Assembly (NCBI GenBank): GCA_002269645.1
Contig: NIVC01002654.1
Span: 121,371 to 152,710, forward strand
Reading direction: 5' to 3'
Length of the DNA: 31,340 nucleotides
Source of the DNA: Macrostomum lignano
Lineage: Eukaryota
The notes below the pieces were generated by a model that saw only the letters and a program-made list of their open reading frames with translations, was not told the DNA's origin and did no database searches. This document shows positions 10,596 through 31,340 of the stretch, piece by piece. Every line of letters starts with the position of its first letter. Position 1 is the stretch's first letter. The position numbers and the translations under genes are program-made.

Positions 10596-11033
10596 ATGGA
10601 TCTCTATCACTATTTGCAGAGCCGAGAAGCAATCTCCGCACTGATGGCTCTGGAGCCTCACGGTGTGTGCCACACACTGTGCATAAAATGGAGCGTTGCC
10701 AAGATCATCTATCTCCTATCCGGCTCGCTAATTGTATGCGGCTTCACCGTGGAGATGATTGTCATCGGCATGATAGTGGCGCCCTACCTCAGGGAGGCCG
10801 AGTTCGTGGAGGCCAGTTGCCAGTTTAACTCCAGTCGGTATACCGGCTACACAGACTGCCAAGATGTGAATAGAAAGCCAAATAACAACTTCCCTTGTCT
10901 AGAGGTGCTGGTCAACTTTTTCCCCCACAGTTCCAGTAAATTGCCAGTAAATTCCAGTAAATTGTTCGGAGGCGGAGTGGCCACCATCTACTCCGTGCTG
11001 TCGTACTATGAGGAGTCTTCTAGTACGTCAAAG
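10596..11033 (+). CDS. Exon 1 of KCNMB-like paralog 1 (BK-channel beta-subunit-like two-TM protein). It has a short N-terminus, TM1 (IIYLLSGSLIVCGFTVEMIVIGMIV) and a Cys-containing extracellular loop. It ends at the donor AAG|gtgagc, phase 0.
   Basis: The motif PYLREAEFVEASCQFNS resembles the PALQDLQATEANCTVLS region of vertebrate KCNMB4 as I recall it. The donor GTGAGC immediately follows the last in-frame codon before the stop. An internal Met 17 codons downstream of the start (MALEPHG...) is an alternative start. Confidence 0.6.
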
Positions 11034-11698
11034 GTGAGCTGAAACAGTTTGACTGCCTCACCCGTAAACTGCGCCTTCGCCTGTCTCCTCAGCCGTAAGT
11101 TCACAAGGCCTGTTGCCTAAGTGCTTCTTCGTCCTTGAGCTGTCTTTTCCTATAAAGCAGGTTTTTTTCTAAGAGTCTACATTGTATCTCCTATAGACAG
11201 TTCAGACGGATGAATAATTTCCTACCTCTGTTTCATTTTTTGGCTGAAAATATGCTTCAATTTTAGTGTAGTGACTAGCAATTTGCGCCCCCTTTGGGAG
11301 GCAACAAAGAAAGAAGATTTTTTTTGAATCAGCTACATGTAAGATTTGACTTTGGCAATACAATTGCTATTGTTAATTTATTGAAGCTTGTTAATCCTAC
11401 TGAATTTGAGAAATTCCCCTCTTCCATAAACCTTGCCACCTCAACAATTCTTTTCTTGAGTCCTTACAGCATTTGGACGAATAAGTTCCTCCTTTTTAGC
11501 TGTCTACTACGTGTCCCTTCTCTACGCTCGCTTTCCCTCAGCTATCGGCTCCTGATAATAGATAGCGTCCCACCGAAAGCGACTTCCGTAGGGCTGTATT
11601 TTATCGTATGTTTGACTTTTTAAGTCTTCGCCTAAAATTAATCTTCAAAATTTTTAACCGCCACTTCTGTGTAATTTCCCCAATACAACAATCTACAG

Positions 11699-12860: not shown

Positions 12861-13003
12861 AGATGTGCAACCGACAGCTCAGCCGCAGCAATTGCGCGGC
12901 GCATCTGAAGGCTGCCCTATACGGCTGTTCAGTCCGGGGGTCGCCACACCCTCAATTACCTTAGCTAATGCTTTTATGCATTTTACATCTGGGTGAACTA
13001 AAG
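12861..13003 (-). mobile_element. Truncated copy, 3' body only, of the same SINE family as 16274..16546 and 18450..18699. It ends exactly where the foldback element begins.
   Basis: The sequence agatgtgcaaccgacagctcagccgcagcaattgcgcggcgcatctgaaggctg... aligns with the other two copies. Homology stops at gggtgaactaaagg|ggtacc. Confidence 0.5.
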
Positions 13004-14352
13004 GGGTACCTCTCATTTCGCCGATTCTCGTTTCGCCGAATCTCATTTTGCAGATTCTCGTTTCGCCGAATCTCATTTTGCAGATTCTCGTTTCGCCGAC
13101 ATTATCATTTCGCCGATTCTCGTTTCGCCGAAATTAATTTCATAACCATCTGGACATTAGACCATAGACAACTACACTAATGCCAAGTGTGATTTGGATG
13201 TCTATGGCTTGAAAAAGAAAGTTAAAATTAAGAATTCTTCCTTCTGCATAATCCATGGTAAAAAGTCTATAGCCAGTGGTATATATGTATGGTATAGGAG
13301 GTTGTGAAATACAAAAATGCCGATTGAAATCGTTTCTGTTGGCTTTTCTGGTGAAATAAATAAGTGGTTTTATTGCATTGACTTCTGAATTGAATGAGTT
13401 AAAACTACGCTCGTAATGCTGGTAAGCTAACGAAATTAAGCTGCAAAAAGGCTACGATACTAGCGCAATATTACTATAGCTTTTTGCAGCCCATTTGGGC
13501 TTACGCGCATTGAATTTAATCCAAGATGTTTGTCAAAGTAACGGAGCTTTTGTCTATGGTAGCAAGGCTGGCACAGCGGCATTTAATTTGGTCCAACAAG
13601 CATCAATTTGGTCCATTTAGTTCATTTGCAGCTCAGTCCCAGAATTGTGGACCATATGCTAGGCTGTTGAACGAATGTCATTGGCTTGTGATCGAAGCAC
13701 TCGACGGAGGTGAACACCCAAAGGACATTGCAAGGTTGCTGAATGTAAAAGAAAAGGTGGTTTACAACATCCAGCAGCGCCTTGAAACTCTGCCGGCAGA
13801 GATTGCCTGCGAAAGGGTGGCAATCGCCAAGGAAAGTTGCTCGAGAGCCTCAGGTCAACTGCTACTCGATGCAGTGGAGACGAACCCTTTGTTGACGTTG
13901 CCGAAATGCAGCAGAAGTTGAGGGAACAGCTCCAGTTGGTTATCAGATTTTGACTATCAGCAGAGCTCTGAAAAAGCAACTGAAAATTGCTGGTAGAGAC
14001 GCTGACATTCCAGCGGTGCGCAACAACCTGCAGACAGTTGAGAGAAGGCAAGAGTGTCCAATGGCTCACGAGTGTTTGGACCAAATTGATGCTTGTTGGA
14101 CCAAATTAAATGCCGCTGCGCCAGCCTTGCTACCATAGACAAAAGCTCTGTTACATTGGCAAACGTATCTTGGATTAAATTAAATGCGCGTAAGCCCAAA
14201 TGGGCTGCAAAATGCTATATTACATTACTTTATTTTTCAAGCCATAGACATCTAAATCACATTTGCATTAGTGTAGTTGTCTATGGTCTAATGTCCAGAT
14301 GGTTATTAAATTAATTTCGGCGAAACGAGAATCGGCGAAATGAGAGGTACCC
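13004..14352. mobile_element. Foldback-like DNA transposon of about 1.35 kb with GGTACC-containing termini. The outer terminal inverted repeats (TIRs) are 13004-13217 and 14231-14352. The left TIR carries a 34-bp subterminal tandem expansion. The inner inverted repeats of about 145 bp are 13475-13617 and 14087-14230. A roughly 240-bp left-side insertion lies between the left outer and inner repeats. The unique core carries an ORF.
   Basis: The reverse complement of 14087-14352 matches 13004-13030, then 13150-13217, then 13475-13617 by eye. The 34-bp unit cgccgattctcgtttcgccgaatctcattttgcagatt is repeated in the left arm only. Confidence 0.55.
13526..13921 (+). CDS. ORF remnant in the foldback element core, with a helix-turn-helix-like segment (ECHWLVIEALDGGEHPKDIARLLNVKEKVVYNIQQRL) reminiscent of the Tc1/mariner or pipsqueak-type transposase N-terminal DNA-binding domain. 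Probably non-functional.
   Basis: It has the residue pattern R..IV....G.....IA..L.V....V..I..R. Its first 30 codons lie inside the inverted repeat and are mirrored by minus ORF 13957..14199. At 131 aa it is too short for a transposase. Confidence 0.2.
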   Translation: MFVKVTELLSMVARLAQRHLIWSNKHQFGPFSSFAAQSQNCGPYARLLNECHWLVIEALDGGEHPKDIARLLNVKEKVVYNIQQRLETLPAEIACERVAIAKESCSRASGQLLLDAVETNPLLTLPKCSRS

Positions 14353-15877: not shown

Positions 15878-16213
15878 ATGGCGTTGAAACGCTGCGACCG
15901 CCTATGCAATGTTCACGGCCTGGCCAAGCTCATCTTCCTGGCCTGCATCACTCTCATCACCTGTGGCGTAATTGTTGGCACAATCCTGGTGCCGCTGATC
16001 ATCCTGCCGTACTCCAGAGAGAGCCGCTTCGCCGACGCCAACTGCACCTATCTGACCGAGCACCTCATCGCCAAGCTGCCCTGCGAGAGCAAGTGCAGCA
16101 AAGACAAGAGCAGCTTCCCCTGCTACAGCATTCGGGTCAGCATCAGCCAGACCAATCAAACCGGGATGCTGTACGAGAACTTCATCACGTTTTCTGAGCG
16201 ACACGACGAGCCG
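15878..16213 (+). CDS. Exon 1 of KCNMB-like paralog 2, containing TM1 (LIFLACITLITCGVIVGTILVPLIIL) and the loop start, with donor CCG|gtaaga, phase 0.
   Basis: PYSRESRFADANCTYLTEH and FPCYSIRVS resemble the ATEANCTVLS and YPCVQVYVN regions of KCNMB4 as I recall it. Exon size and intron phase match paralog 1. Confidence 0.55.
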
Positions 16214-16273
16214 GTAAGAACTGTGGTCTAGATAATTTTATTTTGCTGGAGCCGGTGCAACATTTTGATAGAA

Positions 16274-16546
16274 GATGTGCAACCGACAGCTCAGCCGCAG
16301 CTATTGCGCGGCGCATCTGAAGGCTGCGTACGGCTGTTCAGTCGAAGGATTGGGGGGTCGCCAACCACACCATCAATTACCCCAGCTAATGCTGGCACCC
16401 ATTTTACAGCTGGTTGAACTGAAGCAATGCAGAGTTAAATGTACATGTATTTCTCAAGGACACAAATTTTGGCGAGTGGATCGAGAATCGAACCCCCGAC
16501 CTTTCATTCGCGAGTCCGACGCTCTAACCACTAGGCTACAACCCCA
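16274..16546 (-). mobile_element. tRNA-derived SINE, full-length copy in minus orientation, inside the intron of KCNMB-like paralog 2. Its head resembles tRNA-Arg. The central region GTCCTTGAG..ACATTTAACTCTGCATTGCTTC.GTTCAACCAGCTGTAAA.TGGGTGCCAGC is conserved between copies.
   Basis: The minus strand reads GGGGTTGTAGCCTAGTGGTTAGAGCGTCGGACTCGCGAATGAAAGGTCGGGGGTTCGATTC.... The D-arm and anticodon segment resemble GCGTCTGACTTCGGATCAGAAG of tRNA-Arg(TCG). The body is shared with the copies at 18450 and 12861. Confidence 0.6.
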
Positions 16547-17947: not shown

Positions 17948-18187
17948 TCAAGTCAGCGGCTGAGTAATCCGCACAATGCCGGCTGTCTGCAGGAAGTTGG
18001 TGCAGTTGAACTGCAGGGTGGAGTTGTCCATGAGCACCGGGTGGCACGCGTAGCGCATGAAGTCCGGCAGCAGGTCCTCCATCTCGAGGACGGCTCGCAC
18101 GATTCTGTCCCAGCTGGCGGCCCGCACGATGACCACACGCCTGGGCAATGACTTGTACAGCTCCAGGCTGCCCAGGCTGATGCGCGC
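17948..18187 (-). CDS. Putative terminal exon of an unknown two-exon gene: ARISLGSLELYKSLPRRVVIVRAASWDRIVRAVLEMEDLLPDFMRYACHPVLMDNSTLQFNCTNFLQTAGIVRITQPLT*
   Basis: The acceptor cacaatacgcag| is in phase 0 with the ORF, and the upstream in-frame stop lies just before the acceptor. I recognise no domain. Confidence 0.3.
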   Translation of the reverse strand, partial: ARISLGSLELYKSLPRRVVIVRAASWDRIVRAVLEMEDLLPDFMRYACHPVLMDNSTLQFNCTNFLQTAGIVRITQPLT

Positions 18188-18449
18188 CTGCGTATTGTGC
18201 GCGGGCAGATTGTGCAGAGATTGTGGTTACTCTCCGTGAATAAGATACGAGTATCCGAATTTTGATAAATCCTATACTTGCTCCATCGAAAAGGATCGAT
18301 GTTCCATTTCGGACATTAAAACGGTAAAAGAAACTGTTGGGTACACTACTTAGAAGTAGTAAGAAATGATTTTTGACGCTTCAGGCTGGTAGATGAAATG
18401 AGCTTCAACCGATTGCTGCTGGACAGCGTGCTGGATAGTTAGCTAGCAA

Positions 18450-18699
18450 GTTGTAGCCTAGATGGGGATGTAGCCTCACGTCGGGGGTTCGATTCCCGAT
18501 CCTACTGGAACAATATGTGTCCTTGAGCAAGACATTTAACTCTGCATTGCTTCGGTTCAACCAGCTGTAAATGGGTGCCAGCATTAGCTGGGGTAATTGA
18601 GGCTGTGTGTGGCGACCCCCAGTCCTTGGACTGAACAGCCGTACGCAGCCTTCAGATTCACCGCGCAATAGCTGCGGCTGAGCTGTCGGTTGCACATCT
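18450..18699 (+). mobile_element. Second copy of the SINE family, plus orientation and inverted relative to the copy at 16274. The head is rearranged: GTTGTAGCCTAG is partly duplicated and the D-arm and anticodon segment is deleted.
   Basis: GTTGTAGCCTAGATGGGGATGTAGCCTCACGTCGGGGGTTCGATTCCCGATCC is followed by a body collinear with the reverse complement of 16274-16546, ending ggttgcacatct. Confidence 0.55.
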
Positions 18700-18948
18700 A
18701 GCGAAATTGGGGCCTGTGTAGTCAATTACGAGCGTATTATTATTATCTAGCAAGTCAAAGGGGGCAGTAAAATCCAGGCCAACGAAGAGGCAAGCAGTCA
18801 CATCCGCTCCTCGGTGACCCCTGGCAATCATTTTCTAGGTTAATCGCGAGTTTGAATCTGTATAACTATTAATTTCAAGGATTAGTACAGAATACACTTC
18901 TCGTAATACGAACAGTTAAGGATCTTTTTATGATTATAAGATGTTCCG

Positions 18949-19085
18949 GCTCAACTCCAGGTGAGGGACTCAGGACCTGCTCAACTCCAGGTGACGGACT
19001 CAGGACCTGCTCAACTCCAGGTGAGGGACTCAGGACCTGCTCAACTCCATCCAGGTGAGGGACTCAGGACTCAGGACCTGCTCAC
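18949..19085 (+). repeat. Short array of about 4.5 copies of the 30-bp satellite ctgctcaactccaggtgagggactcaggac. The terminal unit supplies the GTGAGC donor of the putative exon at 19086.
   Basis: Direct reading shows the same family as 19900-20510 and 22231-23215. Confidence 0.9.
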
Positions 19086-19403
19086 CCCTGATTTGTTCAT
19101 GATGACCAGAAGTCGCCTATCGGTAGCGAACCGCTTGTCCAAGTCCATGAACGGCGCCATCAGACGGTCTACCTCGGAGCTGTACAGATAGACGTAGAAC
19201 CAATAGTGCACTCGAAAGTCGGTGGTATCCGTTGGCTGAGACGGCTGCAGGCTGCGGTAGGGAAACGGCAGGCAGCCAGGCTTGGTCAGAACTCTGGTCT
19301 GTTCGGCCTTGTCCGCGTTGCCATTCTCCGTGTTCAACGACTTTGGATCGGCTAAGCGGTTCCTCTGCAGCCGGGCTCGGCGAGGCGTCTTTTCCTGCGA
19401 CAT
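19086..19403 (-). CDS. Putative first coding exon of the unknown minus-strand gene: ATG at 19403-19401, then MSQEKTPRRARLQRNRLADPK...DFRVHYWFYVYLYSSEVDRLMAPFMDLDKRFATDRRLLVIMNKSG, with donor GGG|gtgagc, phase 0.
   Basis: A true ATG. A canonical GTGAGC donor sits 3 codons before the ORF stop, and its phase matches the acceptor at 18187. Confidence 0.3.
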
Positions 19404-19899
19404 TGGCTTTATGCTCTATTTGGTGTATAAATATTTATACTATATAGCTGGCCTGACGTGCCCCAGCTGATCCTTTCACTGCGACTGTTGTTAGCCTAAA
19501 GCGTCTTCAAACCATGGACGTAGGAAAGAACTTGACCGTTAGAAGTTTGAGCTTACCTAGGAAATGCCATAGACATTTACATGTATAGCTGTCGCTCACA
19601 CTCTGCCAGCTGCTTATTAATTCGGATATGTATTCATGTATGTATTCATTATGTATTCATATTCGGATATGTATTATGTATTCATGTCGTAAAACTTTTT
19701 ACCATAGACAACTCATAAACGTCTGGGGGGGAGAGAGAGTCAGAGTTTATACACAGAGCATAAAAGTGCAATCAAAGTTGGCCGGACAGGTGGAGAATGT
19801 ATACCGTATTTCTTATAAGTTTCGGCAGTCTTTTTCGGCTGTCTGGGTGGAAATATTCTACAGTTCTTTTCAATTTTTATAAAATCTCCCAAAGGCGTG

Positions 19900-20510
19900 G
19901 GTTGAGCAGATCCTGAGTCTCTCACCTGCAGTTGAGCAGGTCCTGAGTCGCTCATCTGCAGTTGAGCAGATCCTGAGTCTCTCACCTGCAGTTGAGCAGG
20001 TCCTGAGTCGCTCATCTGCAGTTGAGCAGATCCTGAGTCTCTCACCTGCAGTTGAGCAGGTCCTGAGTCCCGCATCTGGAGTTGAGAAGGTCCTGAGTCG
20101 CTCATCTGCAGTTGAGCAGATCCTGAGTCTCTCACCTGCAGTTGAGCAGGTCCTGAGTCGCTCATCTGCAGTTGAGAAGGTCCTGAGTCGCTCATCTGCA
20201 GTTGAGCAGATCCTGAGTCCCGCATCTGGAGTTGAGAAGGTCCTAAGTCCCTCATCTGGAGTTGAGAAGGTCCTAAGTCCCTCATCCGGAGTTGAGAAGG
20301 TCCTAAGTCCCTCATCCGGAGTTGAGAAGGTCCTGAGTCCCTCATCCGGAGTTGAGAAGGTCCTGAGTCCCTCATCCGGAGTTGAGAAGGTCCTGAGTCC
20401 CTCATCCGGAGTTGAGAAGGTCCTGAGTCCCTCATCCGGAGTTGAGAAGGTCCTAAGTCCCTCATCTGGAGTTGAGAAGGTCCTGAGTCCCTCATCCGGA
20501 GTTGAGCAGG
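19900..20510 (-). repeat. 30-bp satellite array of about 20 copies in reverse orientation, unit ctcacctgcagttgagcaggtcctgagtcg, with ordered subvariants.
   Basis: Direct reading. The reverse complement equals the unit of 22231-23215. The 263-aa ORF over it is a periodicity artefact. Confidence 0.9.
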
Positions 20511-20522
20511 AGTAGTGGAATG

Positions 20523-20680
20523 AGGTGTCACTGGAGTGTCAGAAAGGAAAGTGTCAAAAACTGTGGTGTCAAAAGGGAGGTGTCAGAATGGGAGGTGTCA
20601 AAATGGGAGGTGTCAGAATGGAAGGTGTCAGTATGGGAGGTGTCAGAACGGGAGGTGTCAGAACGAGAGGTGTCAGACGG
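20523..20680. repeat. 15-bp minisatellite of about 10 copies, unit ggaggtgtcagaatg.
   Basis: tgtcagaatg at 20581 and tgtcaaaatg at 20596 give a 15-bp period. Confidence 0.85.
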
Positions 20681-21159
20681 AAGAGTTGACAAAAAGAAAG
20701 TTGCTGTGTCTATAGATACCTTTGTGACTACTGGTTGAACTAGGGCAGTCTATGTTTTCAAAAATGTGAAGCATTAAAATGACTCTGAATTTTTAAAAGT
20801 AATAGAACAAAACTGATACAAACTTTTCTGACAACAACGGAGGCAGTTAATTTTATAAGCATTGTCGATTTCAAAACGGAATATATTTAATAAATAACAA
20901 TTTTTATTTAGACGCTCAACTCCGATAACATGCGGGCTGGAGGTGCTTCATCTCAAACAGAAAAAAAACGGTGCGTCCATTCTCTTTCAAAGAATTCAAA
21001 AAACACCTTATAGTGCACAGTCTAACAAAAATTTACAACGCACAGAGGCAATGTTATGAGAAATGAGTGGAGCAGGATGAACTGTTTCTTAGGAAAAGCA
21101 ACGGCTTAAAGGATAACACCCTGGCAGTACTGCCGTGGACAGCGAAAGTATAAGGGTGC

Positions 21160-21355
21160 CTGCACTGAGCATCTCACCCTGCACTGAGCATCTCACCCTG
21201 CACTGAGTATCTCACCCTGCACTGAGCATCTCACCCTGCACTGAGCATCTCACCCTGCACTGAGCATCTCACCCTGCACTGAGTATCTCACCCTGCACTG
21301 AGTATCTCACCCTGCAATGAGTATCTCACCCTGCAATGAGTATCTCACCCTGCGC
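21160..21355. repeat. 21-bp minisatellite of about 9-10 copies, unit ctgcactgagcatctcaccct, with gagc/gagt/aatg variants.
   Basis: Direct reading. Confidence 0.85.
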
Positions 21356-21626
21356 TGAGAAAGTTATTGCGCTGAAAATAGAAAAAAATTGTATTTCAAA
21401 AGCGATGAATCGATGGTAATGTTTCGGGTGTTGCGTCCTTCTGCTTTGGTTGTCCGCGAGTTGCTACTGCTAATAAAATTCATAAGTAGTATACATATTT
21501 ACTATAAGAATAATTAGAGCTAAACTTTACAGTTATAAAGATCCGGCCACCAGCTGCCACCTCGCATGTGACTTTACTCGCATTGCATATGCTCATTCAA
21601 AAATGTCCACAGGCCATAGCAACGGG

Positions 21627-22151
21627 TCATCGGGAAGCTGCGGCGAAGGTCAACCCGTCATCTCGGCGAACCTCCGGCTCCGGCTCGGGCAGAGACGCAC
21701 CCGATTCTTCGTTGGCTTCACGCAGTCCAGCCTCCTCGCGATCGGCTTCATCGTCCTCTCCGAGTTCCTGCTCCTCCTCATAGTCTGCGTCGGCATCACA
21801 GGCGTATTTGCCGAGCTCTGCCGAGTCGGCGGCGAACAGGCTCTGGTAGGCGCCAACGAGCTGCTGGAACAGCGGCTGCTGCTGTGAGCTGTCGGCCTCG
21901 CTGTGAGCCAGAGTCGCAGTCTCCACAACGTGGCACCAAGGCGCCGAGGCTGCAGCGGCGGCAGCAGCGGCCGCGGCGGCTGCGGCAGCGGCTGAATAGG
22001 CCGACTGAGCATCCTGCTGCTGCTGCTGATGCTGTTGCTGAGAATGATGAAGATGGCTAGGATGCTGCAGATGATGCTGGCCGCCAAGGTGCTGTCTCGG
22101 ATCGTGTCTGACAGGCGATGACGCAATCATTGGTATGCCGTTCAGAGTGCG
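21627..22151 (-). CDS. ISL: Islet LIM-homeobox gene, C-terminal coding exon. It follows the acceptor cttgtcttacctctccccag|, phase 0. The translation is RTLNGIPMIASSPVRHDPRQ...polyQ, polyA...QQQPLFQQLVGAYQSLF...acidic tail, then a stop.
   Basis: LNGIPMIASSPVRHD and QPLFQQLVGAY match vertebrate ISL1 IQGMTGTPMVAASPERHD and QPAFQQLVNF as I recall them. A strong polypyrimidine acceptor is present, and the phase is continuous with the homeodomain exon. Confidence 0.75.
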   Translation of the reverse strand, partial: RTLNGIPMIASSPVRHDPRQHLGGQHHLQHPSHLHHSQQQHQQQQQDAQSAYSAAAAAAAAAAAAAAASAPWCHVVETATLAHSEADSSQQQPLFQQLVGAYQSLFAADSAELGKYACDADADYEEEQELGEDDEADREEAGLREANEESGASLPEPEPEVRRDDGLTFAAASR

Positions 22152-22230
22152 CTGGGGAGAGGTAAGACAAGCTTTCCATGCATTTTGTTTATTGCAGTTA
22201 AATATGACGCTATCATGTTAAATCTTCTCA

Positions 22231-23215
22231 GTTCCCGGTTAAGGACTCAGGATCTGCCCGAATTCAGATGAAGGCCTCAGGATCTGCTCAACTGCAGGTA
22301 AGAGACTCAGGATCTGCTCAACTGCATGTGAGGGACTCAGGACCTGCTCAGCTCCCGGTGAGGGACTCAGGACCTACTCAACTGCGGGTGAGGAACTCAG
22401 GATCTGCTCAAATTCAGGTGAGGGACTCAGGATCTGCTCAACTTCAGATGAGGAACTCAGGATCTGCTCAACTGCAGGTGAGGGACTCAGGACCTGCTCA
22501 ACTGCATGTGAGGGACTCAGGACCTGCTCAACTTCAGATGAGGAACTCAGGATCTGCTCAACTGCAGGTGAGGGACTCAGGACCTACTCAACTGCGGGTG
22601 AGGAACTCGGGATCTGCTCAAATTCAGGTGAGGGACTCAGGATCTGCTCAACTTCAGATGAGGAACTCAGGATCTGCTCAACTGCAGGTGAGGGACTCAG
22701 GACCTGCTCAACTGCATGTGAGGGACTCAGGACCTGCTCAACTTCAGATGAGGAACTCAGGATCTGCTCAACTGCATGTGAGGGACTCAGGACCTACTCA
22801 ACTGCGGGTGAGGAACTCAGGATCTGCTCAAATTCAGGTGAGGGACTCAGGATCTGCTCAACTTCAGATGAGGAACTCAGGATCTGCTCAACTGCAGGTG
22901 AGGGACTCAGGACCTGCTCAACTGCATGTGAGGGACTCAGGACCTGCTCAACTTCAGATGAGGAACTCAGGATCTGCTCAACTGCAGGTGAGGGACTCAG
23001 GACCTGCTCAACTGCGGGTGAGGGACTCAGGACCTGCTCAACTGCATGTGAGGGACTCAGGACCTGCTCAGCTCCCCGGTAAGAGACTCAGGATCTGCTC
23101 AACTGCGGGTGAGGGACTCAGGACCTGCTCAACTGCATGTGAGGGACTCAGGACCTGCTCAGCTCCCCGGTAAGAGACTCAGGATCTGCTCAACTCCCGG
23201 TGAGAGACTCAGGCT
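22231..23215 (+). repeat. 30-bp satellite array of about 32 copies, plus orientation, unit ctgctcaactgcaggtgagggactcaggac, with a higher-order pattern of variants. It lies in the Islet intron between the homeodomain and C-terminal exons.
   Basis: Direct reading. The 301-aa RDSGPAQLQV ORF is a periodicity artefact. Confidence 0.9.
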
Positions 23216-23809
23216 GCACTCCCGCACACTGAAAGCAGGTGCACTAGCCGGTCGCTGCGCAATTGTTGGTGGTGGAGTCAAAATTCGGGGGGGGGGCAAT
23301 AATAGTGAGGGCTTGGGCGAGCGTAACTAGAAAAAGATTAGCGACCGCGTCTCTTGGTCTCTTCCGGCACTGCCAGGGGTCTTGTTTGGTCAGGCCTTGC
23401 CAAACGCCTCCTTCCGCCGTCGCCCCCCCCCTCAAATCAGCCCGGCTGCTGCGGTTTCTGGGATCTGCTGCGACCCCCCCCCCCTCGGGCTAGTGGGTGG
23501 ACTCAAACAAGCTGGCTGGGGAACACGGCATAGAATCCCATTATTCAGCTATTTCAGTCGGCCAGGTGTTTACGCAGCTGAGATCTCATCCTCAGGGGGG
23601 CGTGGAGCTGCACTGTGGATTTCTGCTGCTTCTGGTTCGGCAACCTCGGGGTGGACAATTTCACTGCACCTAAGCCGACCTGCACACTGCTTGTCACTCT
23701 GTCTGTCTGCCAGTACGTAAATCAATTTTTAACTGCTATTTGGTTTTGCTATTGACGTCTCATTTCTATTAAGTTGTTCTCAGAGGAGAGTTTCCCGCCA
23801 TTAGAAAGG

Positions 23810-24300
23810 AATGAATGAATAGAATGGATTGCTAATCTAGCCAACATCACGGATGCAGGAATAGAATGGATTGCTAATCTAGCCAACATCACGGATGCAG
23901 GAATAGAATGGATTGCTAATCTAGCCAACATCACGGATGCAGGAATAGAATGGATTGCTAATCTAGCCAACATCACGGATGCAGGAATAGAATGGATTGC
24001 TAATCTAGCCAACATCACGGATGCAGGAATAGAATGGATTGCTAATCTAGCCAACATCACGGATGCAGGAATGGAATGGATTGCTAATCTAGCCAACATC
24101 ACGGATGCAGGAATAGAATGGATTGCTAATCTAGCTAACATCACGGATGCAGGAATAGAATGGATTGCTAATCTAGCCAACATCACGGATGCAGGAATGG
24201 AATGGATTGCTAATCTAGCCAACATCACGGATGCAGGAATAGAATGGATTGCTAATCTAGCCAACATCACGGATGCAGGAATAGAATGGATTTGCTAATC
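23810..24300. repeat. 42-bp minisatellite of about 11.5 copies, unit gaatagaatggattgctaatctagccaacatcacggatgcag. It lies in an Islet intron and ends 50 bp from the homeodomain exon donor.
   Basis: Direct reading. Units are nearly identical. Confidence 0.9.
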
Positions 24301-24351
24301 TGTCTTATAAATAATGAACAAAAAAGATTACCTTCTGATAGACATCCTCAC

Positions 24352-24731
24352 CTTCTGCTGCTGGTGCTCCATCTGTTTCATGAGCAGCTGTTTCTTCTTG
24401 TCCTTGCACCGCTTGTTCTGAAACCAGACCCTGATGACTCGCGGGCTCAGGCCGGTCATCTCCACCAGCTGCTCCTTCATCAGCGCGTCCGGCCGAGGAT
24501 TGGCCGCGTAGCAGGTGCGCAGCGTGTGCAGCTGCTTCTCGTTCAGCACCGTCCGGACTCGGGTCGCTTTGCTGCTGTCCTTGCCGCCGCCGCCGCCGCC
24601 GCCACAGACGGTTTTTCCGCGCTTCCCTCCGCCTGCGGCGGCGCCACTTGAAGCGCCGGTTCCACTGCCGACACCGTTGGACACAGCAGGCTCCGACGCC
24701 GTTGACTGACTCGCTGAATCCTCGTCGTTGC
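24352..24731 (-). CDS. ISL: Islet LIM-homeobox gene, homeodomain exon. It follows the acceptor aacctgataaacag|, starts in phase 1 with 2 bases, and ends at the donor CAGAAG|gtgagg, phase 0. It encodes ...[72 protein letters not shown]
   Basis: The homeodomain is identical over about 57 residues to vertebrate ISL1 ([57 protein letters not shown]) as I recall it. The ORF-track Met at 24684 is actually a GTG. Confidence 0.9.
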
Positions 24732-25145
24732 CTGTTTATCAGGTTAAGGGAGCGAGTCGTACGTTTCCCCAAATCAGGAGCATCTTGCATCATTTGCCGT
24801 CTTGTTCGCCAACAATATGTATTAAGCCCGAAAGGAAATGGCGCCCAGCTACCGGTCTGAGGGAATTTCGAATAGAAAAATCATTGTCCGCCCGCCAATA
24901 CGAGGCCTCCGAGATCGCGTCCTGTCCTGTCTTGTCTTGTCTTGGCTTGTCTTGGCCTGTCCACCTTAATCCCTCGCTGGTGGGCTGGCACAGAAGCAGC
25001 AACAGCAGCACAGCAAGAGAAGGCAGCAGTTGGAGCAGCAGACGCCGCCACGGCCGCCGCCACCAAGTCCCGCCAGCAGACGAGGAGTCTCCTCCATCCC
25101 CCGTCTCCCCAGCAGAAAGTGGATGCCTAAAAGTATTAAAGAAAG

Positions 25146-25163
25146 AACACACACACACACAAA
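25146..25163. repeat. (AC)n microsatellite.
   Basis: acacacacacacacaaac. Confidence 0.8.
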
Positions 25164-25579
25164 CAGGCACGCACGACTAAACGTCTAGTCTTGCTTTTCT
25201 GTATGTCGTCTGATCCTTTAGACTGTGGGGTGGGTGGGTGGTCCTGTCAGGCCCTTGGGGTGGGGCTCTTGCTAGGGCACGAATGGGGGTCCCGACTGCC
25301 TGGCCCCCTGCTACAAAGAAGCCCATTAATCACCCCGGGAAGTCCGCCTTTTTCAAGCCGGGGCGAAACGACGGTGCAGAGGATAACCTGCCCGGTCCAT
25401 CCCCACACTGCTTTCCCAGATCCCACTTGTCAGTCAGGCAGTAAAGGCCAAATGTTCATGTAGGCATGACAATGGCCTGCTTTATCAACTGGACATTGGA
25501 GGTAGCTGAACCACCTGAATGCGCTCGGCAGCACAACTGAGAATTTTCAGAAATTTCACTGAGATTAAGGTTTCTTTAA

Positions 25580-26338
25580 CACAATCTGCGGACACAATCT
25601 AGGCAAATCTGCAGACACAATCTTGACATAGCTGGAGACACAATCTTGACATAGCTGGAGACACAATCTTGACAAATCTGCAGACACAATCTCGGCAAAT
25701 CTGCAGACACAATCTCGGCAAATCTGCAGACACAATCTAGGCAAATCTGCAGGCACAATCTCGGCAAATCTGCAGACACAATCTTGACAAATCTGCAGAC
25801 ACAATCTCGGCAAATCTGCAGACACAATCTCGGCAAATCTGCAGGCACAATCTCGGCAAATCTGCAGACACAATCTTGACAAATCTGCAGACACAATCTC
25901 GGCAAATCTGCAGACACAATCTTGACAAATCTGCAGACACAATCTTGACAAATCTGCAGACACAATCTTGACAAATCTGCAGACACAATCTTGACAAATC
26001 TGCAGACACAATCTCGGCAAATCTGCAGACACAATCTTGACAAATCTGCAGACACAATCTAGGCAAATCTGCAGGCACAATCTCGGCAAATCTGCAGACA
26101 CAATCTCGGCAAATCTGCAGACACAATCTAGGCAAATCTGCAGACAATCTCGGCAAATCTGCAGACACAATCTAGGCAAATCTGCAGGCACAATCTCGGC
26201 AAATCTGCAGACACAATCTCGGCAAATCTGCAGACACAATCTTGACAAATCTGCAGACACAATCTCGGCATATCTGCAGACACAATCTCGGCAAATCTGC
26301 AGACACAATCTTGACAAATCTGCAGACACAATCTCGAC
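25580..26338. repeat. 23-bp minisatellite of about 32 copies, unit caaatctgcagacacaatctcgg, with cttgac/ctaggc/ctcggc variants. It lies in the Islet intron between the LIM2 and homeodomain exons.
   Basis: Direct reading. The minus-strand ORFs rich in RLCLQICRDCVC are artefacts because 3 x 23 = 69. Confidence 0.9.
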
Positions 26339-26992
26339 ACAGCCACAGACACAAGCTTAGCACAAGTCACAGACACAAGCTTAGCACAAGCCACAGACAC
26401 AAGTTTAGCACAAGTCACAGACACAAGCTTAGCACAAGTCACAGACACAAGCTTAGCACAAGTCACAGACAAGTTTAGCACAAGTCACAGACACAAGCTT
26501 AGCACAAGCCACAGACACAAGTTTAGCACAAGTCACAGACACAAGCTTAGCACAAGTCACAGACACAAGCTTAGCACAAGTCACAGACACAAGCTTAGCA
26601 CAAGTCACAGACAAGTTTAGCACAAGCCACAGACACAAGTTTAGCACAAGTCACAGACACAAGCTTAGCACAAGTCACAGACACAAGCTTAGCACAAGTC
26701 ACAGACAAGTTTAGCACAAGTCACAGACACAAGCTTAGCACAAGTCACAGACAAGTTTAGCACAAGCCACAGACACAAGTTTAGCACAAGTCACAGACAC
26801 AAGCTTAGCACAAGTCACAGACAAGTTTAGCACAAGCCACAGACACAAGTTTAGCACAAGTCACAGACACAAGCTTAGCACAAGCCACAGACACAAGTTT
26901 AGCACAAGTCACAGACACAAGCTTAGCACAAGTCAGAGACAAGTTTAGCACAAGCCACAGACACAAGTTTAGCACAAGCCACAGACACAAGC
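26339..26992. repeat. 24-bp minisatellite of about 27 copies, unit acacaagcttagcacaagtcacag, with 21-bp deletion variants. It is directly contiguous with the 23-bp array and shares the CAGACACAA core.
   Basis: Direct reading. The +-strand ORF translating to repeated HRHKLSTS is an artefact. Confidence 0.9.
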
Positions 26993-27570
26993 TCAGAAGT
27001 CTCAATGCACCCCATATGCCAATATTCTATGATTGAGACCATCGAGCTTTTGCAGTCAAATTGAAATAGGAATCCTAGCGCCGACTATTCGCTATCGCAA
27101 TCCTGTTTGAACTGCAAAAGCCAGCGCTGAATCTCAGTCCAGACCTCCTCAGGATCGTGACTAAACCGCGATTTCAAAGTGACGGCCGTGCTCTAGCCAA
27201 AAATGAAATTGGAAAGTTTTATAAAGTCAAGTTGGGGATATAAAATATTGGGATTTAGATTGGCGTGGTGGGGGGGGGGATAATCTCGACGCGAGTGGCT
27301 CTCGGCAGATGCCAGATATAAACCCGGGACTTCACAAATTATCTGCCCATAAGAGGCTCTTCATGCTGATGCAATTATCAAACACTTCTCTTATCAAATT
27401 GATGGGAAGCGATGAGAACCTTCTGTTTTGGCAGTTTACCCTCAAATTGCATCTGCAGGGCCTACTTGATGTTGGCTGACAGTTTCAGGTCAATAAAATT
27501 CAATTTTCACCTATTGATAGATGAAGCTGTCAAATTGAAACCATCATTTTGTTGTCAATCTGCTGTCTGC

Positions 27571-27935
27571 TATCAACCTGAAGCTATCAACCTGAAGCTA
27601 TCAACCTGAAGCTATCAACCTGAAGCTATCAACCTGAAGCTATCAACCTGAAGCTATCAACCTGAAGCTATCAACCTGAAGCTATCAACCTGAAGCTATC
27701 AACCTGAAGCTATCAACCTGAAGCTATCAACCTGAAGCTATCAACCTGAAGCTATCAACCTGAAGCTATCAACCTGAAGCTATCAACCTGAAGCTATCAA
27801 CCTGAAGCTATCAACCTGAAGCTATCAACCTGAAGCTATCAACCTGAAGCTATCAACCTGAAGCTATCAACCTGAAGCTATCAACCTGAAGCTATCAACC
27901 TGAAGCTATCAACCTGAAGCTATCAACCTGAAGCT
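27571..27935. repeat. 14-bp tandem repeat of about 26 near-perfect copies, unit tatcaacctgaagc.
   Basis: Direct reading. Confidence 0.9.
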
Positions 27936-28165
27936 AGCCTGAAACTAGCAACCTGAAGCTAACCTGAAACTAAAACCTGAAGCTAGCCTGAAACTGTCAA
28001 CCTGAAGCTAGCCTGAAACTGTCAACCTGAAGCTAGCCTGAAACTGTCAACCTGAAGCTAGCCTGAAACTGTCAACCTAAAGCTAGCCTGAAACTGTCAA
28101 CCTGAAGCTAGCCTGAAACTGTCAACCTGAAGCTAGCCTGAAACTGTCAACCTGAAGCTAGCAAC
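27936..28165. repeat. 25-bp minisatellite of about 8 copies, unit gaagctagcctgaaactgtcaacct. It is derived from and contiguous with the 14-bp unit.
   Basis: Direct reading. Confidence 0.85.
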
Positions 28166-28216
28166 TGTACATTCTTCATCTGTACTGTCACAAGCCCAGC
28201 GGAGCCAATTGCTCAC

Positions 28217-28554
28217 ACTCCATACCCGGGTGCAGCTGGTTCACCCCGCTGCTGCCAATGCTGTCGCCCGGGCTGCCAACGCCGACAATGTGCGACGGCG
28301 GCTGCTGTTGCGGCGACCTCTGCGTTGTCGACGACGCGTCGACGAAATCTCCAGTGAGCAGCGCGTCAAAGTCGGCCCGACAGTAGATGCCGCCGTCGTC
28401 GCGTCTAACGCCGAATTCTTCGCCTGGAACCAGCTGCCTCGCGCAGGCCTGGCAGCGGAAGCAGGTCACGTGATAGAGCCGGGACTGGGCGCGCATCACC
28501 GGCTCGGACTTGACCAGGGCGACGCTGCACTTGGCGCACCGGCTGCCGAACAGC
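28217..28554 (-). CDS. ISL: Islet LIM-homeobox gene, LIM2 exon. It follows the acceptor ctctcacctctccag|, phase 2, and encodes (R)LFGSRCAKCSVALVKSEPVMRAQSRLYHVTCFRCQACARQLVPGEEFGVRRDDGGIYCRADFDALL... The donor is either GAGT|gtgagc, giving a 3' end of 28217, or CCGG|gtatgg, giving 28226. Both are phase 1 and compatible with the homeodomain exon.
   Basis: Matches the ISL1 LIM2 region [63 protein letters not shown] as I recall it. Exon phase arithmetic was checked by hand. The 207-aa ORF 28188..28811 contains it, and its upstream part is minisatellite. Confidence 0.8.
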
Positions 28555-28614
28555 CTGGAGAGGTGAGAGCGAGGCGAGCGGTTTGAGTGAGGGGAGAGGG
28601 TAGGCAAAGGGAAT

Positions 28615-28838
28615 GGAGATGATGCAGAGGAGAGGGCGGAGATGATGCAGAGGAGAGGGCGGAGATGATGCAGAGGAGAGGGCGGAGATGATGCAGAGGA
28701 GAGGGCGGAGATGATGCAGAGGAGAGGGCGGAGATGATGCAGAGGAGAGGGCGGAGATGATGCATCGGAGAGGTCGGAGATGATGCGGAGGAGAGGTCGG
28801 AGATGATGCATCGGAGAGGTCGGAGATGATGCGGAGGA
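28615..28838. repeat. 23-bp minisatellite of about 9.5 copies, unit ggagatgatgcagaggagagggc. It starts about 60 bp upstream, in the intron, of the Islet LIM2 exon acceptor.
   Basis: gatgcagagg at 28621 and 28644 give a 23-bp period. Confidence 0.9.
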
Positions 28839-29439: not shown

Positions 29440-31340
29440 GCTCATGCTAATACCCGATGACTACTTATTGATCATGCTCATAATACCACATGAGTATTAA
29501 TTGATCATGCTCATAATACCATATGACTATCAATGATCATGCTCATAATACCATATGACTATTCAATGATCATGCTCATAATATCAGATGACTATTCAAT
29601 GATCATGCTCATAATACCAGATGACTATTCAATGATCATGCTCATAATACAGATGACTATTCAATGATCATGCACATAATACCAGATGACTATTCAATGA
29701 TCATGCTCATAATACCAGATGACTATTCAATGATCATGCTCATAATATCAGATGACTATTCAATGATCATGCTCATAATACCAGATGACTATTCAATGAT
29801 CATGCTCACAATACCAGATGACTATTCAATGATCATGCTCATAATACCAGATGAGTATTAATTGATCATGCTCATAATACCATATGACTATTCAATGATC
29901 ATGCTCATAATATCAGATGACTATTCAATGATCATGCTCATAATATCAGATGACTATTCAATGATCATGCTCATAATACCATATGACTATTCAATGATCA
30001 TGCTCATAATACCAGATGACTATTCAATGATCATGCTCATAATATCAGATGACTATTCAATGATCATGCTCATAATACCAGATGACTATTCAATGATCAT
30101 GCTCACAATACCAGATGACTATTCAATGATCATGCTCATAATACCAGATGAGTATTAATTGATCATGCTCATAATACCATATGACTATTCAATGATCATG
30201 CTCATAATATCAGATGACTATTCAATGATCATGCTCATAATATCAGATGACTATTCAATGATCATGCTCATAATACATATGACTATTCAATGATCATGCT
30301 CATAATACCAGATGACTATTCAATGATCATGCTCATAATACCAGATGAGTATTAATTGATCATGCTCATAATACCATATGACTATTCAATGACCATGCTC
30401 ATAATACCATATGACTATTCAATGATCATGCTCATAATACCAGATGAGTATTCAATGATCATGCTCATAATACCAGATGATATTCAATGATCATGCTCAT
30501 AATACCAGATGACTATTCAATGATCATGCTCATAATACCATATGACTATTCAATGACCATGCTCATAATACCATATGACTATTCAATGATCATGCTCATA
30601 ATACCATATGACTATTCAATGATCATGCTCATAATACCAGATGACTATTCAATGATCATGCTCATAATACCAGATGACTATTCAATGATCATGCTCATAA
30701 TACCAGATGACTATTCAATGATCATGCTCATAATACCAGATGACTATTCATGATCATGCTCATATTACCATGACTATTCAATGATCATGCTCATAATACC
30801 ATATGACTATTCAATGATCATGCTCATAATACCATATGACTATTTCAATGATCATGCTCATAATACCAGATGACTATTCAATGATCATGCTCATAATACC
30901 ATATGACTATTCAATGACCAGCTCATAATACCATATGACTATTCAATGATCATGGCTCATAATACAGATGACTATTCAATGATCATGTCATAATACAGAT
31001 GACTATTCAATGATCATGCTCATAATACCAGATGACTATTCAATGATCATGCTCATAATACCAGATGACTATTCAATGATCATGCTCATAATACCAGATG
31101 ACTATTCAATGATCATGCTCATATTACCATGACTATTCAATGATCATGCTCATAATACCTATGACTATTCAATGATCATGCTCATAATACCATATGACTA
31201 TTTCAATGATCATGCTCATAATACCAGATGACTATTCAATGATCATGCTCATAATACCAGATGACTATTCAATGATCATGCTCATATTACCATGACTATT
31301 CAATGATCATGCTCATAATACCATATGACTATTCAATGAT
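29440..31340. repeat. 33-bp satellite of about 58 copies, unit accagatgactattcaatgatcatgctcataat, with ccag/ccat/tcag variants and occasional 1-bp indels. It runs off the window end and presumably lies in the Islet intron upstream of LIM2.
   Basis: accagatgac at 29681 and 29714 give a 33-bp period. The MIMLIIPDDYS ORFs are artefacts. Confidence 0.9.

Follow-up and report, generated by a model that had tools for sequence, protein, structure and literature searches.

A 30-bp minisatellite family in three arrays and both orientations around the terminal exon of Islet in Macrostomum lignano

Introduction

How does one short repeat come to occupy three separate sites, in both orientations, around the last exon of a developmental gene, and does it affect that gene? 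The question is raised by a 31,340-nt stretch of the Macrostomum lignano genome (assembly GCA_002269645.1, contig NIVC01002654.1, positions 121,371 to 152,710 of the forward strand), hereafter the window and numbered from its first base, which carries the gene Islet and, next to it, the gene of the hypothetical protein BOX15_Mlig023104g1 (Mlig023104). An initial annotation of this DNA described a 30-bp satellite family in three arrays, forming a kb-scale inverted repeat around the 3' exon of Islet, and credited it with splice-donor motifs, with the ability to form hairpins or cruciforms and with a possible role in inversions. The analysis presented here, in which the arrays are labelled A1, A2 and A3, favours a simpler view: with a probability of roughly 0.8, they belong to an ordinary, locally spread, non-coding 30-bp minisatellite family in a genome rich in tandem repeats.

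One 30-bp family in three arrays

Tandem Repeats Finder (TRF) recovered period-30 repeats at 18949-19070 (A1; 3.9 copies, 93% matches), 19901-20510 (A2; 20.3 copies, 92% matches) and 22243-23213 (A3; 32.3 copies, 85% matches), and the consensus of A2 is the reverse complement of that of A1 and A3. When the whole window was scanned in fixed register with the 30-bp unit of the initial annotation, allowing at most 8 mismatches, 34 units (3 + 31) were found on the plus strand and 20 on the minus strand, all of them inside the three blocks and none elsewhere in the 31,340 bases. Self-BLAST gave the same orientations, A1 and A3 matching each other directly and both matching A2 in inverted sense, which disposes of the concern that alignment might place all arrays in one orientation after all. 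Measured between the edges listed in Table 1, the arrays are 139, 611 and 992 nt long. In A1, three clean 30-bp units are accompanied by one that has small duplications within it and by 8 nt of a further, partial unit; in A3, the units degenerate towards both ends. All three consist of head-to-tail copies of a unit in the 10-100 bp range, as minisatellites do, and the BLAST cross-matches among them reveal a unit shared across the arrays, as in a minisatellite family.

The two large arrays form the kb-scale inverted repeat that had been described. An inverted-repeat search recovered arms of 607-610 nt that are 84-86% complementary in many 30-nt registers, and the spacer, put initially at about 1.7 kb, amounts to 1713 nt from the array edges (20511-22223), or to 1714 nt for the smallest spacer in that search. 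The family is previously undescribed; no publication describing it was found, and an exact scan of metagenomes for the core of the 30-bp unit gave 0 matches.

Internal structure and turnover of the arrays

On average, units are 82-96% identical inside the arrays and 82-87% identical between them. A3 shows a higher-order repeat of 210 bp, or seven units, with an autocorrelation of 0.96 at lag 210, compared with values of about 0.87-0.90 for the other multiples of 30, and two of the higher-order copies are 99% identical. A2 is a mosaic of two halves, the first (19910-20209) consisting mostly of alternating 60-bp dimers of CTGCAGGTGAGAGACTCAGGAT / CTGCAGATGAGCGACTCAGGAC, variants that resemble A3, and the second (20210-20509) of the near-uniform variant CTTCTCAACTCCGGATGAGGGACTCAGGAC (a homogeneous CTTCTCAACTCCGGATGAGGG variant). 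Exact matches are up to 228 bp long inside A3 and up to 119 bp inside A2, but the longest between arrays measure only 22-29 bp. Moreover, 63 of the 103 abundant 12-mers of A2 and 42 of the 80 of A3 are private to their array. Such higher-order periods (210 bp in A3, 60 bp in A2), produced by homogenisation in place, are typical of a minisatellite family, and together with the private variants and the shortness of the inter-array matches they indicate that each array was amplified and homogenised where it stands after separation, without recent exchange between arrays.

Neither self-BLAST nor direct reading of the flanks found similarity at any array flank beyond the units themselves. Since the arrays have no common non-array flanks, they were not carried by a larger duplicated or mobile unit. 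The arrangement of variants in A2 offers a weak hint as to its orientation: the half nearest A1 is A3-like, with G at unit position 11 and 1-2 mismatches to A3 units, and in the half facing A3 there is C, as is typical of A1, so that the order of variants would be collinear were A2 flipped, as would be expected from an inversion or an inverted re-insertion of this array.

The 30-mer was also compared with 11 other repeat units of the window, and possible kinship emerged for a 19-bp unit only (TGCTCA-GTGCAGGGTGAGA versus TGCTCAACTGCAGGTGAGG in local alignment; z=3.8, p of about 0.003 by shuffling, uncorrected for the 11 comparisons). It is suggestive only, but the 19-bp array may stem from the 30-bp unit, in the orientation of A2, by an 11-nt deletion. 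The 15-bp array that adjoins A2 is unrelated to the 30-mer in local alignment (z=-0.2).

Position of the arrays in Islet and Mlig023104

Islet lies on the minus strand, and its homeodomain matches Pfam Homeodomain at 1.5e-16 and the ISL-1 structure PDB 1bw5 at 9.7e-36. The homeodomain exon has 24352 as its last base and ends in the donor CAGCAGAAG/GTGAGG (slashes mark splice boundaries); the last intron base is 22152, after the acceptor ctctccccag/CGC, and both boundaries are in phase 0. When the two exons are joined, the encoded peptide can be aligned with ISL-1 of sea urchin and mite across the predicted junction into NGIPMIASSPVRHD, the Islet-specific region after the homeodomain, and on into APW and PLFQQLV. 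Because this alignment with orthologues runs uninterrupted over the splice junction, the C-terminal exon is genuine.

A3 is located wholly within the last Islet intron, antisense to Islet and 71 nt upstream of the acceptor; with the neighbouring 42-bp array it turns about two thirds of this intron into tandem repeat. Between the Islet stop codon and the next gene only two minus-strand A[AT]TAAA hexamers occur, at 20908 and 20891, both before A2. From this motif scan, the 3' untranslated region (UTR) of Islet is predicted to be about 720-740 nt long and to end before A2, which for that reason is probably intergenic. The segment enclosed by the large arrays would accordingly hold what the initial annotation placed there, the genuine C-terminal exon and the probable 3' UTR.

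The search for homologues with the homeodomain and C-terminal peptide returned 772 Islet orthologues, the best at 53% identity (from a rotifer) and none from M. lignano. In spite of this, the exons of the locus (21627-28600, minus strand) look intact. Transcripts overlapping repeat annotations were discarded from the GenBank annotation of M. lignano (PMC5730564), and such filtering may explain why an Islet protein model is missing for this locus. Runs of 8-11 G or C lie beside A3 in the last intron (23290-23300, 23425-23435 and 23475-23490); they could be either true homopolymers or long-read homopolymer noise.

The adjacent gene lies on the same strand, 2.2 kb away. Its first exon, an open reading frame (ORF) at 19403-19086, translates with 100% identity into residues 1-106 of the GenBank protein P0001 (hypothetical protein BOX15_Mlig023104g1 [Macrostomum lignano]), which identifies the window as DNA of this species; the model of this gene stems from transcriptome-based annotation (PMC5730564). 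A1 constitutes the first 139 nt of intron 1, at its 5' end and antisense to the gene, and A2 lies about 500 bp upstream of the gene's start, in DNA that is probably intergenic, downstream of the poly(A) signals predicted for Islet. A TATA-like sequence, tatatagtataaata, can be read directly on the minus strand at 19420-19450, about 20-45 nt upstream of the ATG, and suggests a promoter of its own for Mlig023104, together with a very short 5' UTR.

On the minus strand, intron 1 of Mlig023104 starts as GGG/GTGAGCAGGTCCTGAG... from 19085 downwards (donor GGG/GTGAGCAG). This donor corresponds to the truncated edge unit ctgctcac read as its reverse complement, and differs from the minus-strand unit tail GTTGAGCAG by the lack of one T. 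As judged from the junction, the 5' splice site of this intron is situated in array-derived sequence, yet not in the cagGTGAGg motif. The earlier proposal that an array unit is used as the donor at 19086 is therefore right about the array-derived edge, but wrong about the motif and the strand, the donor being read from the opposite one.

Origin of the arrays

More than half of the M. lignano genome is repetitive, simple and tandem repeats contributing 15% (PMC5730564), and TRF covers 26.7% of the bases of the window, with at least 15 unrelated arrays. A local, neutral minisatellite family would arise in such a genome as follows. Short seeds of the unit would have landed at three adjacent non-coding sites, namely the first intron of Mlig023104, the intergenic DNA that separates it from Islet and the final intron of Islet. 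Every seed would then have expanded and been homogenised independently, through replication slippage and unequal exchange, with array-private variants, the 60-bp dimers of A2 and the 210-bp heptamers of A3 as the result. The flip of A2 would most likely reflect either a small neutral inversion or the inverted re-insertion of a seed in the intergenic region. We infer neutrality for these arrays, which are without demonstrated function. A single ancestral array that was later split was also considered and rejected, exons of two genes lying between the arrays.

Some points weigh against this neutral account. Three arrays of the same family within 4.3 kb, each adjoining an exon boundary, are a non-random arrangement, and the model needs short-range spread to produce it. 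The presence of the Mlig023104 intron 1 donor in array sequence means that the family can matter for gene structure. Finally, how the family is distributed over the genome and how A2 came to be flipped are both inferred.

The best surviving alternative, although an improbable one, is that the arrays are the tandem-repeat arms of a foldback-type DNA transposon, such as Drosophila FB or Tetris, or that they arrived through independent insertions, in one orientation or the other, of a mobile element that carried repeats. Long inverted arms of tandem repeats like those of A2 and A3 do characterise Tetris (PMC4079207), and the foldback-like inverted repeat with 15-bp tandem-repeat tips at 13011-14345 of the window indicates that such elements exist in this genome. 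An element of this kind would own its centre, however, and here the A2-A3 spacer is a conserved host exon in the right orientation and phase with the upstream Islet exons, while the spacer between A1 and A2 holds exon 1 of Mlig023104, with exon 2 outside the pair. Conserved termini or target-site duplications were likewise missing, self-BLAST finding no common non-array termini or flanks, and arms as unequal as 139, 611 and 992 nt would be difficult to accommodate.

Less probable again is an assembly artefact, in which a repeat block was mis-oriented or duplicated when long reads from a genome rich in repeats and partly duplicated were assembled. In its favour, only 64% of the bases of Mlig_3_7 are error-free by REAPR and this assembly contains much redundancy (PMC5730564), and runs of one base near 23290-23480 are a hint of long-read error. 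Nevertheless, amplification in place and inter-array exact matches of at most 29 bp argue against one array being an assembly copy of another, as do the private variants and the higher-order structure that each array has for itself. The sequence that joins the arrays is, besides, unique and carries genes whose reading frames are intact and whose splice phases are correct, and arrays of 0.6-1 kb are well below long-read length. Assembly duplication, which the initial annotation had named as the outcome that would undo its description, is thus not indicated.

Pairing between the arrays and splice-like motifs

When A2 and A3 were cofolded with DNA parameters, 554 intermolecular base pairs were formed at a net -361 kcal/mol, compared with -6 for a same-orientation control. 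Only where the nucleic acid is single-stranded is such pairing plausible. In yeast, inverted repeats up to 30 kb apart and with up to 25% heterology interact in long single-stranded DNA (ssDNA), and in double-stranded DNA (dsDNA) lengthening the spacer from 12 to 20 bp lowers recombination about 40-fold (PMC10164571). Fragile palindromes combine an arm homology of at least about 75% (threshold from PMC10164571) with a short spacer of tens of bp; the 84-86% of A2 and A3 lies above the former value, and their spacer of 1713 nt is far from the latter. Because of the 1.7-kb spacer, and in addition the 14-16% divergence of the arms, cruciform extrusion in dsDNA is not credible, so that the suggested hairpin is plausible in ssDNA and a cruciform in dsDNA is not. 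Inversion mediated by the arrays, suggested at the same time, is disfavoured as well, since the identity tracts available to homologous recombination between A2 and A3 are at most 29 bp. With such an inversion the terminal Islet exon would be turned round as well, presumably to deleterious effect.

The statement that each unit contains cag/GTGAGg proved to be too broad. AGGTRAG was counted 3 times in the roughly 4.5 units of A1, 4 times in the 20 of A2 and 9 times in the 33 of A3, and cagGTGAG is present in only about a quarter of the units; GATGAG is found in 14 of the 20 A2 units and any GTRAG in 25 of the 33 A3 units. The splice-like motifs are there because the unit carries the palindrome CTGCAG beside GTGAGG. 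Because both host genes lie on the minus strand, A1 and A3 run antisense to the introns in which they sit. Read in the sense of Islet, A3 provides 17-18 acceptor-like tccctcacctgcag/t sites and no donor-like role, and donors in gene sense come only from the intergenic A2, which has 4 consensus donors.

These features invite the idea of an action at the RNA level, in which an imperfect A3/A2 duplex of about 600 bp in read-through or polycistronic Islet-Mlig023104 precursors would loop out the terminal Islet exon, affecting 3'-end processing or splicing, or would yield small RNAs. This is very unlikely. The two genes do share a strand at a distance of 2.2 kb, and precursors spanning several genes make up about 7% of the transcripts of M. 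lignano (PMC5730564), but the poly(A) signals predicted for Islet precede A2, and so separate the arms, and the TATA-like sequence near the Mlig023104 ATG suggests a separate promoter. Strong as the pairing is in silico, and although A3 in Islet sense and A2 offer acceptor-like sites and consensus donors, respectively, and intron 1 of Mlig023104 already takes its 5' splice site from a minus-strand unit tail, the arrays turn over fast and are array-private rather than conserved, and comparable arrays abound in the genome. We would give as little credence to the broader proposition that a splice-motif-bearing 30-bp minisatellite actively shapes RNA processing, with the A3/A2 duplex modulating the use of the exon that encodes the LIM-interaction domain or making small RNAs.

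Coding potential

As the initial annotation had recognised, the arrays generate long spurious ORFs (263 and 301 aa) because the 30-nt unit is divisible by 3 and stop-free in some frames. In these ORFs variation peaks at codon position 1, without third-position bias, and 9 DNA variants translate into 8-9 peptide variants. Translated, the ORF of A3 has no homologue among 5.8 billion proteins. It is matched at 2e-17 by Pfam DUF2807, which is one of eight unrelated families matched, and a scatter of this kind is as expected from repeat bias; a repeat protein would show a coherent single-family domain and real homologues, and neither was found. Rfam at gathering thresholds and ARAGORN, run over the whole window, gave no match and no tRNA. 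The lack of homologues, the absence of a codon-position bias and the intronic or intergenic placement are those of a non-coding minisatellite. That the arrays encode a real decapeptide-repeat protein (repeats of the AQLQVRDSGP type) can practically be dismissed, for all the length of the stop-free frames and the DUF2807 match, when almost every DNA variant alters the peptide and the A3 ORF, devoid of homologues and with matches spread over unrelated families, runs antisense within an Islet intron.

Other features of the window

The upstream Islet introns are crowded with unrelated minisatellites, several of which give long spurious ORFs (Table 1). A dispersed element of about 230 bp occurs in three copies that are 81-89% identical, at 12861-13003 (+), 16273-16500 (+) and 18480-18699 (-), the last of which shares intron 1 of Mlig023104 with A1. 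Its terminal sequence, GGATCGGGAATCGAACCCCCGA, is the reverse complement of a motif like the T-arm/box B of a tRNA, and the element is probably a tRNA-derived short interspersed element (SINE), with no match in ARAGORN or Rfam.

In the foldback-like inverted repeat at 13011-14345, the arms 13105-13222 and 13472-13615 pair with 14343-14227 and 14222-14077 at 94-96% identity, the left arm being interrupted by a 250-bp insertion. The 15-bp tandem repeat TCTCATTTCGCCGAT is found at both outer tips, in 7.9 copies at 13011-13131 and in 1.9 reverse copies at 14317-14345. An ORF inside it (13526-13921) shows a weak HTH_29 match (1.1e-4, below cutoff), and the whole is possibly a decayed DNA transposon.

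On the plus strand, an uninterrupted ORF at 1344-3767 encodes an 807-aa nucleolin-like product with an RRM domain (Pfam 1.3e-18), a C-terminal RGG tract and an acidic/serine-rich coding repeat of 111 bp (37 aa) in 7.4 copies; no exactly matching product is on record. The ORFs at 10596-11042 and 15878-16231, also on the plus strand, resemble the beta subunit of calcium-activated potassium channels (Pfam CaKB, 6.8e-3 for the former and 6.8e-8, above cutoff, for the latter) and probably represent either tandem paralogues or exons of genes of this type.

Table 1. Arrays, gene parts and signals discussed in the text, in window coordinates
Feature	Position	Strand	Size, copies and remarks	Evidence
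Mlig023104 exon 2	17948-18187	-	includes stop codon	tblastn
Mlig023104 intron 1	18188-19085	-	898 nt, GTGAGC...CGCAG; holds A1 and a SINE-like element
Array A1	18947-19085	+	~4.5 units	TRF, register scan, unit listing, junction sequence
Mlig023104 exon 1	19086-19403	-	106 codons; donor GT 19085-19084	protein match, tblastn
Array A2	19900-20510	-	20 units (reverse)	TRF, register scan, unit listing
15-bp array (GTGTCAGAATGGGAG)	20536-20677	+	9.5 copies, adjoins A2	TRF
Poly(A)-signal hexamers (Islet, predicted)	AATAAA 20908-20903; ATTAAA 20891-20886	-		motif scan
19-bp array	21159-21359	-	10.6 copies, within probable Islet 3' UTR	TRF, local alignment
Islet C-terminal exon, coding part	21627-22151	-	stop codon 21627-21629	ORF, frame, acceptor, orthologue alignment
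Islet last intron	22152-24351	-	2200 nt	donor AAG/GTGAGG at 24351
Array A3	22224-23215	+	~33 units	TRF, autocorrelation, intron coordinates
42-bp array	23817-24301		11.5 copies	
Islet homeodomain exon	24352-24684	-	upper coordinate is the ORF limit (ORF 24684-24328)	Pfam, PDB 1bw5
23-bp unit grading into 24-bp unit	25583-26993		33.7 copies (23 bp), 29.5 copies (24 bp)	
14-bp array	27569-28165		44.6 copies	
23-bp array	28615-28838		9.7 copies, adjoins LIM-domain exon	
33-bp array	29448-31340		57.8 copies, continues past window end	

Significance and comparison with known systems

Recognition of the family is of direct value for annotation, as it accounts for two long spurious ORFs and a misleading Pfam match in a region where minisatellites fill between a third and two thirds of the Islet introns. 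It also furnishes a worked example of a splice donor within repeat-derived sequence. Were the inverted pair to be polymorphic or active in RNA, it would offer a natural setting in which to study how inverted repeats that are divergent and far apart behave beside an essential developmental gene; nothing in the present evidence indicates either property.

Intronic inverted repeats can promote back-splicing into circular RNA, and hairpin-RNA loci give rise to endogenous small interfering RNAs. A2 and A3 resemble such loci in flanking an exon of a same-strand gene. They differ from them in that the flanked Islet exon is terminal and that A2 lies beyond the predicted poly(A) site.

With the inverted Alu repeats studied in yeast (PMC10164571) the pair has in common that its arms of about 610 nt, their divergence of 14-16% and the 1.7-kb spacer fall inside the range in which repeats interact in ssDNA. 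The yeast arms are single-copy, in contrast to the multi-register repeat arms of A2 and A3.

Foldback transposons (FB of Drosophila and Tetris of D. virilis, PMC4079207) likewise have long inverted arms of tandem repeats, and these arms can seed satellite arrays (PMC4079207). Unlike in FB and Tetris, the loop here is a host Islet exon, the arms are very unequal, and conserved outer termini or common flanks are absent.

The closest parallels are with the euchromatic arrays of Tribolium castaneum (PMC4675708) and Crassostrea gigas (PMC7492417), where head-to-tail units of tens of bp form several short arrays of the same family near or in genes, and where array-specific homogenisation, higher-order periodicity and a non-coding nature are found as in M. 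lignano. No carrier transposon was detected around A1, A2 and A3, unlike in the Helentron-borne arrays of the oyster, and the present locus departs from the beetle and oyster examples in its compactness, with three arrays within 4.3 kb and one of them inverted.

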